A stretch of DNA of 64,000 nucleotides from Eledone cirrhosa (taxonomy: Eukaryota): positions 392,212,001 to 392,276,000 of the forward strand of contig OZ024740.1 of NCBI GenBank assembly GCA_964016885.1, given 5' to 3'. The notes beneath the pieces are model-generated. The model was not told the origin of the DNA. It ran no database searches and was given only the letters and a program-made list of their open reading frames with translations. The position numbers and the translations under genes were made by a program. Below are positions 8,256-61,675 of this stretch, piece by piece; position 1 is the stretch's first letter; the number at the start of each line of letters is the position of its first letter.

Positions 8256-8835
8256 ATTATAATGAAATGACAGGAGGCTGGATTTGTGTAAATCCTTGAA
8301 AGGTTTATTATACTATGATCATTTCAATGACCGGGTTCCGTATGAATCCGGTGATATCATCAGGTATTCGAAATATAATACGTGAATGTAATAGATAAAA
8401 TCCATGGGGCTGAAAATCGAGGACCCGAGGGCGACCGCTATTCTGTTCCTTCAACCTCAGCCGGTCGCCCTTCAACCTCCAGGGCGACCGGCTGAGGTTG
8501 AAGGAACAGAATAGCGGTCGCCCTCGGGTCCTCGATTTTCAGCCCCATGGATTTTATCTATTACATTCACGTATTATATTTCGAATACCTGATGATATCA
8601 CCGGATTCATACGGAACCCGGTCATTGAAATGATCATAGTATAATAAACCTTTCAAGGATTTACACAAATCCAGCCTCCTGTCATTTCATTATAATATTT
8701 AACTCCGTAATAGCACCACCAACTACAAAAACAAAGACTTGAACTGCTTTACGTTGAGTACTCTCTATATTATTGCATTATGATTGACCATACGGAATAG
8801 ACCAGCTCTATACAGTGGTGAACCTCAAACCTGAA
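8256..8835 (+). mobile_element. Penelope-like pLTR remnant: ~216-bp inverted repeat (8256-8471 / 8481-8696) plus unique ~140-bp tail
   Basis: Arms read as exact reverse complements around a 9-nt spacer; each arm carries a hammerhead motif followed by AATAAA; embedded in (TA)n. Confidence 0.7.
8585..8642 (+). ncRNA. Type I hammerhead ribozyme motif (mirror copy on - strand at 8310-8367)
   Basis: ATAC-CTGATGA-[stem II with ACCGG/CCGGT and TTC/GAA]-GAAA-TGATCA-TA-GTAT; palindromic stem III ATGATCAT, AUA triplet, then AATAAA. Confidence 0.7.
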
Positions 8836-9100
8836 TATATGTATGTATATATATATATGTATGTATATATATATATGTATTTATATGTATGTATATATAT
8901 GTATATATATATATGTATGTATATATATATGTATGTATATATATATATGTATGTATATATATATGTATGTATATATATATGTATGTATATATGTATGTAT
9001 ATATATATGTATATATATATATGTATGTATATATATATGTATGTATATATATATGTATATGTATGTATATATATATGTATGTATATATATATATGTATAT

Positions 9101-9726
9101 GTCGGGTCACTCTTGAGTGCTATTGGTAACATGTAACCCAGTACAACCTGTCGCATGGTCGGGTCGTCGGCGACTAAACCGGCAACCCCACCAAGTTTAC
9201 TTGGTGAGGAGGGTGATTTTGGACACCCTGCAGGACAAGAAACAAAACCTGACAAAGGGCGGAAGATCTCATAAGAGTCAACGGCCATCCAAAACTGTGT
9301 AAATATGTATATACACATGTACATATGTATGTATATGTATATGTGTATATACACATGTACATATGTATGTACATGCGCGGGGACATAGAAATAATCGGGC
9401 TGGACACCCGATCGCACGGTTAAACCACTGGGAGTGAAGGACCCCTAGCCTTTGTCAGGGCATCCTTCTAGGAGAAGGCAACTCAGGAAACTGGGATAAC
9501 TCCGATATAAAACCTGCGGCTCAATAGTTACCGATGATGTTGATCTTTTCTTCTTTTCGGGTTATAGCTACTGTCGCTCAGAGAGTGGGATTGGCTCAGT
9601 GCACAGTCTTTCCTCATTTAAAAAAATATCTTCACGCACAGGCATTGCACGATAGAATTAATAAATAATTATTAATAATGGTATATCGTGCAATGGCCAT
9701 ACTCGATAACGAGGGGGCAGCCATCA
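9101..9726 (+). mobile_element. Second copy of the ~600-bp RTE-related element, interrupted by a short microsatellite
   Basis: Aligns by eye to 7470-8065, from GGTAACATGTA..CCCAGTACAACCTGTC to GGCAGCCA.CA before (TA)n. Confidence 0.6.
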
Positions 9727-10867
9727 TATGTATGTATATATATGTATGTATATATATATCTATATGTATGTATATATGTATATGTATATATATATGTATG
9801 TATATATATATATGTATGTATATATATATGTATATGTATGTATATATATGTATGTATATATATATGTATATGTATGTATATATGTATATGTATATATATA
9901 TGTATGTATATATATATATATGTATGTATATATGTATGTATGTATATATATATATGTATGTATGTATATATATATATGTATGTATATATATGTATGTATA
10001 TATATGTATATGTATGTATATATATGTATGTATATATATATATGTATGTATATATGTGTGTATGTATATATATGTGTATGTATATATGTGTGTGTATGTA
10101 TATATATATATGTGTGTGTATATATATGTGTGTGTATATATATGTGTATATATATCTATGTGTATATATATATGTATGTATATATATATATATATATATG
10201 TGTGTGTAAATCTATGTGTATATATATGTGTGTGTAAATCTGTGTATATATATGTATGTATATATATATGTATATATATGTGTGTATATATATGTATGTA
10301 TATATATGTATATGTGTGTATATATATATATGCGTGTGTATATATATGTGTGTATATATATGTGTATATATATATGTGTCTATATATATATGTATATATA
10401 TATATGTATATATATATATGTCTATATATATGTGTATATATGTGTGTGTATATATATATATATATGTGTGTATATATATATATATGTGTATATATATATA
10501 TGTGTGTGTATATATATATATATATGTGTGTGTATATATATATATATATATATATGTGTGTATATATATATGTGTATATATATATATATATGTGTATATA
10601 TATATATGTGTGTATATATATATGTGTATATATATGTGTATATATATATATATGTGTATATATATATATATGTGTGTATATATATGTGTATATATATATA
10701 TATGTGTGTATATATATATGTGTATATATATATATATATATATGTGTGTATATATATATTTGTATATATATACACACACACATATATATATGTGTATATA
10801 TATATGTGTATATATATATACACACACACACATATATATGTGTGTGTATATATGTATGTGTGTGTAT
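9727..10867. repeat. 1.1-kb (TA)/(TATG)/(TG) compound microsatellite
   Basis: Read directly. Confidence 0.95.
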
Positions 10868-60094: not shown

Positions 60095-60492
60095 AAATAA
60101 AGTCTAAGTCTAAAATCTGTCTTAAGCCAGAAGGCTCATTTGGTCGGTGCTTATCCCGCGGTTTCATGGCGTGAAGTGACTGAGAGTACAAGACTCCCCC
60201 TTGGACAGGGCGCCAGTCCATTGCAGGGTTAAACCTCCAGCTATTGCTGGTACTCATTTTCAGCTGAGTTTACTGGAGCAACGTAAAATGAAGTGTTTTG
60301 CTCAAGAACACAACACACAACCCAGGAATCGAGCCCACGACACTACGATCGCAAGTCCAACACCCTTACCACTAGGCCACGTGCCTCCACTATATATATA
60401 TATATATAGTATGTAAGTGTGTGTGTGTCTGTGTGTGTATATATATATACCTGAGCAGTGTACACAATATTTCATTATTATATATATATATT

Positions 60493-61400
60493 TGGAATCA
60501 TAAGGTCTGAGAATAAACATAGCCAAAACTAAGGTACCACTGAGTAGAAAAGAAGATAGGACCCTGGTTTCTTCAGCGTAGTGGCCCTGCTCAATATGTA
60601 CAAAAGGAGTAGGCATAAACATCATATGATGTTCACAATGTAAATCTTGGGTACAGAAGAGATGTGGTGGGATAATGGGTAGACTAACAGGAAAGGAAGA
60701 CTTTGTATGTAGAAGATGCACAGTTGTAATCAAAGAGAAGAGTGATATAAACCTCTTCAAGTCACAGGAACGGTCCATAGAAGTGGTTGATAGTTTCTAC
60801 TATCTAGGTGACTTAATTAGTAGCAGAGGAAGGTGCTCTGAGAGCATAAAAGCTAGAATATGAATAGAATGGAAAAAGTTTAGAGACCTTCTTCCACTGA
60901 CGACAACAAAAGGTTTCTCCCTATGTACAAAAGGACGAGCGTATGATGCCTGTGTGCAAAGTGCAATGCTGCATAGTAGTGATACATGGGCTGTGACTGC
61001 AGAAGACATGCGTAGACTGGAGAGAAATGAAGCAACCATGCTTTGTTGAATTTGCAATGTGAATGGGAGTGAAAGATAGAGCTTGGATGAGCTGATGGAG
61101 GAGCTAGGTTTAAGAGGAATTTGAAATTGGGTGTGGGAGTGAAGACTGCATTAGTACAGATATGTGATGCACATGGGTGATGATCGCTGGGTGAAGAAGT
61201 ACAGGAAATCCCAGTGGAAGGAAGTCATGGTAGAGGTAAAGCAAGAAGACCTGGGCAGAGTTTGTGAGAGCTGACCTCAAATCATTGAGACTCACAAAGG
61301 TGAATACAAAGGATTGCAAAGTGTGGAGAGATGCTGTGCTGAGAAGGAGCCATCCAACCCATGCAAGCATGAAAAAACAAACCTAAAAATGATGATAATG
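60493..61400 (+). mobile_element. Older degenerate RTE LINE 3' fragment
   Basis: GLRINIAKTKV, EVVDSFYYLGDLIS, YDACVQSAMLH with many stops. Confidence 0.82.
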
Positions 61401-61630
61401 ATATATATAAGGTGTAATAGTTTGTTTGAAGCATTCTGGAATGTGAATATATATGTGTGTGTGTGTATATATATATATATATATATATATATATATATAT
61501 ATATATATATATATATATATGTGTGTGTGTGTGTGTGTGTAAGTCCTGGGAACAATCGGGGGTAACCACAGTAAGTAAAGTACTCAATACATTACTAGCG
61601 TGTAAACATCAAATTTAATATAAAAATGGC

Positions 61631-61675
61631 TTCTACAGGACTAGAACTGTTTCATTTGCAGGAAATCATCAGGAA
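61631..61675 (-). ncRNA. Type I hammerhead motif, family E (related partial/degenerate copies at 51838-51875 and 52034-52140)
   Basis: Minus strand TTC-CTGATGA-TTTCCTGCAAAT-GAAA-CAG TTCTAGTC CTG-TA-GAA; GUA triplet; weak stem II. Confidence 0.6.

Follow-up and report, generated by a model that had tools for sequence, protein, structure and literature searches.

Hammerhead motifs of Penelope-like elements and a tandem retrozyme with Penelope-type insertion ends in the genome of Eledone cirrhosa

Hammerhead motifs in the window

The DNA analysed here, called the window throughout, is a stretch of 64,000 nt from Eledone cirrhosa (positions 392212001-392276000 of contig C1, OZ024740.1, in a 2,996-Mb assembly). 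It is AT-rich animal DNA, dense in (TA)n and in pieces of RTE-type LINEs; the segments at 17180-17713, 38373-39191, 57509-58537 and 60300-61350 are presumably 3' fragments of such LINEs. Pieces resembling tRNA-derived SINEs lie near 49664-49721 and 59808-59865. An 884-aa open frame on the minus strand (53037-55691) consists of mucin-like, Thr/Pro-rich repeats of 14 aa (a 42-nt tandem, 60 copies) and may be an exon or a plain minisatellite. A separate family of short repeats (41895-42045, 42729-42840, 47635-47720 and 61889-62035) forms perfect hairpins in (TA)n; no hammerhead was detected in it, and it is possibly another end of the Penelope-like element (PLE) type.

The elements of interest are assigned to families A to G. 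Family A is present as two arms: the short arm (8256..8471, minus strand; hammerhead core 8363) has its predicted cleavage site after 8314 and continues for 58 nt beyond it, to an end in (TA)n, and the long arm (8477..8840, plus; core 8589), the 3' end of a 2.4-kb ORF-less unit, has its predicted cleavage after 8638 and ends ~204 nt past it. A degenerate B-like hammerhead with a broken stem I (30474..30535, minus; core 30527) is a separate insertion, and the 3' end of a family B subfamily follows at 30800..30995 (plus; core 30898, stem I of 8 bp). Family C has a long arm of 4.1 identical 310-nt ORF-less units (40220..41495, minus; cores 40415, 40725, 41035 and 41345), ending at unit position 165, and a short arm (41499..41727, plus; core 41558), ending at unit position ~130-139, both in (TA)n. 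The single family D piece (43331..43871, plus; core 43644) comes from an autonomous Neptune-type PLE of 4.2 kb, of which only the 3' end (pLTR) is present. In family E, an inverted end piece comprising the tail region without a hammerhead (45152..45242, minus) is followed by the 3' UTR/pLTR of a Hydra-type PLE (45246..46031, plus; core 45951, stem I of 3 bp). Family B recurs as a short arm (48063..48220, minus; core 48170) ending 58 nt past the cut and a long arm (48217..49333, plus; core 49136), the 3' UTR of a Hydra-type PLE, ending 147 nt past it. Family G is represented by degenerate copies at 50357..50460 (plus; domain II of ~60 nt) and 56614..56700 (plus), and by a copy at 52226..52310 (plus) with a 6-bp stem I and stem III ACAATTGT that has lost G12 of the core. 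Family F has left a degenerate copy at 51838..51884 (minus), a second remnant at 52034-52140 (plus) and, at 61540..61680 (minus), a copy with both core boxes intact and stem I not closed at the core.

A preliminary description of the window had listed 14 intact and four degenerate cores, and every one of them was found where it had been placed. When the intact cores are compared with a type I descriptor (CUGANGA, a domain II helix, GAAA, stem III of at least 2 bp, UH and stem I), 12 of the 14 match with a stem I of at least 3 bp and 11 with one of at least 4 bp. The other two fail on stem I: it is broken in 30476(-) (core 30527), and in 61631(-) (core 61672) it does not close at the core, as throughout family F. 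The degenerate sites are real, decayed members of families F and G. Over the whole window the descriptor finds 12 motifs, or 13 with a 3-bp stem I, compared with a mean of 0.06-0.16 (maximum 2) in 100 global or local dinucleotide shuffles and none in the reversed sequence; a version stricter at the base of stem II finds only three. An additional match, 31359(-), was absent from the earlier list, lacks a TA end and is likely due to chance. The earlier figure of about 14 motifs stands as 12 real by the descriptor, but the independent insertions number six, from five families, and five of the 12 belong to one 310-nt array and its inverted arm (family C).

The palindromic stem III described for most motifs is present as ATGATCAT, ACGCGT, AGTACT and ATATATAT, whereas the motif at 45951 has the non-palindromic ACATTGT; ACAATTGT, also cited, comes from the degenerate copy at 52232. 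Proximity to (TA)n and, for several motifs, a downstream AATAAA were likewise borne out, in a set of 43 motifs from unselected DNA of the same genome: TATATATA lies within 250 nt downstream of 37 of them, against a background of 29%, and AATAAA within 40 nt of eight, against 4%. An Rfam search of the window returned no hammerhead at the gathering threshold and one below it (45935-46005; 29 bits, with a gathering score of 52).

That all these motifs are chance matches in AT-rich, microsatellite-rich DNA is hardly conceivable. The bare CTGANGA 7-mer is not enriched, its count in the window being about that in shuffles (21-24), and site 31359 is probably a match of this kind. However, the full descriptor gives 12-13 matches where shuffles give ~0.1, unselected DNA yields 34 where its shuffles yield 0-1, and the families have thousands of copies each and no control matches. 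The shuffled-sequence controls rule out a chance origin, and the hammerhead motifs in the window are real.

Families of Penelope-like elements

The motifs are almost certainly type I hammerheads of the minimal kind, carried by terminal repeats of several PLE families. Their reading as Penelope-derived, already proposed in the preliminary description, agrees with what surrounds them: three of the five intact families (B, D and E) are joined directly to PLE ORFs, and a head-to-head arrangement, a tail and a (TA)n target are seen in all five. Pattern matching over the genome, with no control match for any family, counts 4,924 copies of A (up to two mismatches), 3,376 of B, 7,531 of D, 3,199 of E and 7,227 of the 3' part of F, as well as 221 matches to a tight pattern for G. 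In family F, stem I is separated from the core in every copy among those listed. Family G has a domain II of ~60 nt, and an intact copy (L158) passes the descriptor.

Longer copies of D (Neptune-type) and of B and E (Hydra-type) encode a reverse transcriptase (RT) followed by a C-terminal GIY-YIG, the order characteristic of EN+ PLEs, and these families also have the partial tandems with a pLTR, the inverted truncated copy and the tail that mark EN+ PLEs. Between family D copies at a distance of 4.2 kb lie two overlapping frames, one of 476 aa and an RT-GIY-YIG frame of 775 aa, and the piece in the window is 99% identical to a full-length copy (L231). In the full-length element RVT_1 has an E-value of 2.9e-6 (below the Pfam cut-off) and GIY-YIG one of 3.2e-6 (above it); the protein carries GxKF, DKG and CX4CxxC, the diagnostic marks of Neptune being GxKF, DKG and CX2-5CxxC. 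The B and E frames carry RWR, DKT and CxCX5C, those of Hydra being RWK-like, DKT and CxCX5C. A Pfam search of the B and E proteins found no domain, so that their clade is read from motifs, and their RT and GIY-YIG from motifs and tblastn. By these diagnostic motifs, D is assigned to the Neptune clade and B and E to the Hydra clade.

In L231 (1990-2130), ORF1 shares ~90 nt with the RT frame; the overlap spans T TTT TTA, which we take to be of slippery-site form, and the same frame break occurs in copies L229, L230 and L232-L234. From the sequence, a programmed -1 frameshift is likely. Fig. 1 of PMC8557442 shows some PLE types with an ORF1 set apart by a frameshift. A further Neptune-type PLE (L138:321-3850) has, as read by eye, a U3-A8 hammerhead in its terminal repeat.

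Family A, with a unit of 2.36-2.41 kb and no frame above 112 aa, and family C have the PLE insertion signature without an ORF, as non-autonomous PLEs do. At one locus only (L043:3-1617), a Hydra-type endonuclease frame stops ~90 nt before homology to family A begins; this is possibly a partner of family A or a chimeric insertion.

Measured downstream from the ribozyme cut, the 3' ends of each family fall at two fixed distances, and a head-to-head pair combines the two. Over all families the fixed ends are found 50-205 nt past the ribozyme, in (TA)n. For family A the distances are ~60/205 nt in all 21 divergent pairs that are informative (two others ran off the locus and were dropped), for family B ~58/147 nt in 19 of 20 pairs and for family E ~52/152 nt in nine of ten (one dropped). 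In family D, ends at 127/188 nt are paired in only four of nine cases (three are long/long; three more were dropped). The two-end pattern matches the published tail on one inverted pLTR, and also the two internal RT start sites of a Poseidon in vitro, as given in the available text of PMC11167929. Nearly every truncated copy would retain the ribozyme because it sits just upstream of the putative RT start sites, and truncated copies keeping one or two hammerheads would lead to the high density of motifs.

A 310-nt tandem retrozyme and its insertion

The family C unit is AT-rich and 310 nt long, with a longest stop-free frame of 59 aa and one type I hammerhead; non-LTR retrozymes are likewise ORF-less tandem units, of 150-450 nt, with a single type I hammerhead. 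One variant alone has 1,361 exact copies in the genome (no control matches), and 1,030 long ends abut TA. We analysed 53 insertions in 50 regions, all on contig C1, of which 11 were chosen by a hammerhead variant and 38 by a long end, the window completing the set; two insertions in L051 probably reflect local duplication. Each of the 49 two-armed insertions is a head-to-head array, with one end at 165 and one at ~139, both in (TA)n, and the other four are one-armed or interrupted by a gap. The arms have medians of 1.5 and 0.9 kb, the longest being 14 kb, and meet mostly with 0-6 nt of overlap or short gaps. Their 5' ends are scattered along the unit and do not accumulate at the cut. An apparent excess of arms ending at the cut (11/96) was an alignment artefact.

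Units are near-identical within an insertion, across both arms, and differ between insertions (25 haplotypes in 53). In nine of the 49 two-armed insertions a private variant, seen nowhere else, is fixed in both arms. Hammerhead variants found in at least four units preserve the core and helices in 11 of 11 cases; of those in one or two units, at least four of 13 break the core. The variants that have spread through arrays lie at N7, at the stem II mismatch, in the loop and at stem I positions that tolerate a wobble or a bulge, and core-breaking changes, in these small numbers, occur in single units only. Two copies of the hammerhead are predicted to cofold as a dimeric ribozyme (-17.7 kcal/mol, compared with -5.8 for the monomer), and folding of the circular unit gives z = -4.9.

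A sister family of C (L294-L323, L053 and L180) is older, with a unit of ~320 nt and 2,798 matches. It has the 3' RT-start module in common with C and differs in the ribozyme, which has a U3-A8 core and a 12-nt palindromic stem III; comparison of the two sequences suggests ribozyme exchange within one scaffold. A four-unit tandem of a 163-nt derivative of this family (L305-L307) ends at the usual long end in (TA)n, and no hammerhead was detected in the derivative. A near-identical C unit appears as one 340-nt contig in three sequencing runs of other organisms; since any tandem repeat would assemble in this way, the match is given no weight here.

The best overall explanation, in which we place good confidence, is that PLE terminal-repeat hammerheads are accompanied here by a retrozyme likely inserted by PLE enzymes, likely from an RNA circle. 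Mobilisation of C by PLE machinery, taken by itself, is highly probable; no autonomous PLE sharing the ends of C was found among the PLE 3' UTRs of the loci examined. In the proposed scheme, the PLE protein would nick (TA)n on both strands, each strand would start reverse transcription at its own fixed site inside the RNA, and the two cDNAs would stop randomly and then be joined 5' to 5'. Tandem transcripts of C would be cut by hammerheads acting as dimers via the palindromic stem III, the monomers would be ligated into circles by a host ligase, and both arms would be copied round and round one circle. Cleavage, circles, two-strand priming and the enzyme's identity are all inferred from sequence. 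A monomer RNA circle, copied by PLE-driven rolling-circle reverse transcription, is the template we moderately favour; repeated copying of it would explain the end structure, the homogeneity, the private variants and the variant classes of C.

One such circle cannot, however, give the mirrored order seen in L054, where both arms read normal-normal-variant from their ends. This locus, a haplotype switch within one arm (L118), one mirrored variant between arms (L127) and recurring variants in L130 (which has a 46-unit arm) and L111, the last two suggesting DNA-level duplication, need a heteromultimer template, a template switch or later duplication of DNA. The 163-nt tandem derivative of the sister family, in which no hammerhead was detected, also weighs against the explanation. 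The main rival to the circle is an uncut multimer, PLE enzymes inserting C from long uncut linear (or multimeric circular) transcripts, with both arms copied from a single multimer or each from its own transcript of one source locus. The mirrored variants of L054 and L127 and the lack of C 5' ends at the cut speak for it, and with lizard Poseidon in vitro ribozyme cleavage is unnecessary and unprocessed RNA is the main template (available text of PMC11167929). However, linear copying only keeps or shortens arrays, whereas arms of 28-46 units are seen; nor does it easily account for a new variant that occupies all units of both arms (nine of 49 insertions), and single-unit variants are almost never mirrored (2 of 48 tests, both of one variant; 15 tests are junction misalignments). 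We consider the multimer rather unlikely, and circle and multimer routes may both operate.

Template jumping is a known property of R2-type RTs, and an RT that copied one cleaved linear C monomer repeatedly by jumping end to end, without a circle, would likewise yield in-phase tandem units. It is very improbable here, for hundreds of units are joined precisely at the cut, the arrays do not mix the many haplotypes that coexist, and the arms do not stop at the cut. Local growth, with C units inserting as short pLTR-like pieces and then expanding by unequal crossover, has been proposed for vertebrate retrozymes and is the model favoured for arrays in the available text of bioRxiv 10.64898/2026.07.22.740005. 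It would suit the recurring variants in L130 and L111, but is improbable: most insertions are multimeric in both arms, with variants common to the arms and exact PLE ends kept, many arrays (including that in the window) have no internal difference at all, and two independent expansions would be required per locus.

Taken at its fullest, the circle reading makes the C arrays a record of rolling-circle target-primed reverse transcription, in which a PLE enzyme would use both strands of a (TA)n cut as primers, on two fixed sites of one ribozyme-made 310-nt circle, and lay down up to 14 kb per event with ribozyme function selected in each cycle, in a host with ~300,000 hammerheads, an order of magnitude denser than the published figures compared. 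We regard this full statement as evenly balanced between holding and failing.

Abundance and comparison with known systems

The suggestion that such elements are very abundant genome-wide was confirmed by a survey of unselected DNA as well as by the pattern counts. In 35 unselected 10-kb stretches (349,800 nt) the descriptor finds 34 motifs, compared with 0-1 in each of ten shuffles, and with a longer domain II it finds 43, compared with 0-2; by eye, they represent well over a dozen families. The density is 97-123 motifs per Mb (~1 per 10 kb), or by extrapolation ~290,000-370,000 genome-wide, a total whose error is wide because matches cluster. One size class of the core pattern, which takes in family F and copies without intact stems, has 169,979 genome matches, compared with 6,888 for a reversed-pattern control. 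The U3-A8 core, under the descriptor used here, is not enriched in the window or in unselected DNA (3 vs 0-5), although U3-A8 families do exist. With ~6 events per 64 kb, the window is ordinary for this genome and no hot spot. At such a density many read-through or intronic transcripts of the animal would contain hammerheads.

Published counts are 126,247 hammerheads in the 28-Gb axolotl genome, ~9,000 in Xenopus tropicalis, 4,000 in coelacanth and over 6,000 in Acropora. No reported density near 100 per Mb was found in the literature searched, although the comparison does not establish a "densest known" genome, because descriptors differ and it leaves out Lunse et al. 2017. Nothing on cephalopod hammerheads was found in the literature searched, whose supplementary files could hold such data; the available passages of two papers on octopus or cephalopod repeats mention Penelope and have no occurrence of "hammerhead".

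Hammerheads in metazoan PLEs (Cervera and de la Pena 2014, PMC4209133), PLE-derived retrozymes (PMC7229834; bioRxiv 10.64898/2026.07.22.740005) and the tail are already in print, as is the proposal of retrozyme movement by PLEs. What is new is the two-armed arrays of family C in (TA)n, with the PLE tail signature and near-identical units. No retrozyme combining a two-armed PLE array signature with single-template homogeneity was found in the literature searched, whose supplementary files could hold inverted-array data. The published systems are compared below as described in the available parts of the cited texts.

The hammerheads resemble the minimal ones of PLEs (PMC4209133) in their type I core, the extra nucleotide or mismatch at the base of stem II, the palindromic stem III, the many families per genome, the opposite-strand pairs 100-700 bp apart and the U3-A8 variant. 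They differ in a longer stem III (6-12 nt), a domain II of up to ~60 nt (family G) and their number, 2,000-9,000 per genome there as against ~100 per Mb and an extrapolated ~300,000 here, with a different descriptor. Among the Neptune and Hydra PLEs (Craig et al. 2021, PMC8557442), the former have the motifs of D and the latter those of B and E, and partial tandems, an inverted 5'-truncated copy, a tail and a (TA)n target are likewise seen. However, tails are 60-145 nt here in A, B, D and E and 30-40 nt there, and family E, at ~4.7 kb with a 911-aa frame, exceeds the under 3 kb of Hydra there.

Family C is like the non-LTR retrozymes (Cervera and de la Pena 2020, PMC7229834; Li et al., bioRxiv 10.64898/2026.07.22.740005) in its ORF-less AT-rich tandem unit with one type I hammerhead, and in the U-U mismatch at its stem II base it is similar to axolotl HHR_Amex2. 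In those two accounts the link between retrozymes and PLEs consists of co-occurrence and pLTR homology, and two-armed inverted arrays with a PLE tail and variants fixed across arms, as in C, are not described in their available text. How animal retrozymes move, and what hammerheads do in PLEs, are called open in PMC7229834, PMC7761336 and bioRxiv 10.64898/2026.07.22.740005. The present genome offers ~1,000 young C insertions with a PLE signature and young intact family D PLEs, a possible source of enzyme, and these make the choice between circle and multimer templates testable both computationally and at the bench.

The closest parallel for the insertion ends is the Poseidon element PAc of Anolis in vitro (Frangieh et al. 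2024, PMC11167929), together with the Penelope of Adineta (PMC3846280), where the tail is set by two internal sites of RT initiation, cutting and extension occur on both target strands, and one inverted pLTR bears the tail, as the ends described here would have it. However, the start sites of Poseidon show no strand preference in vitro, whereas C pairs a long with a short end in 49 of 49 insertions, and such strict pairing constrains models of PLE insertion.
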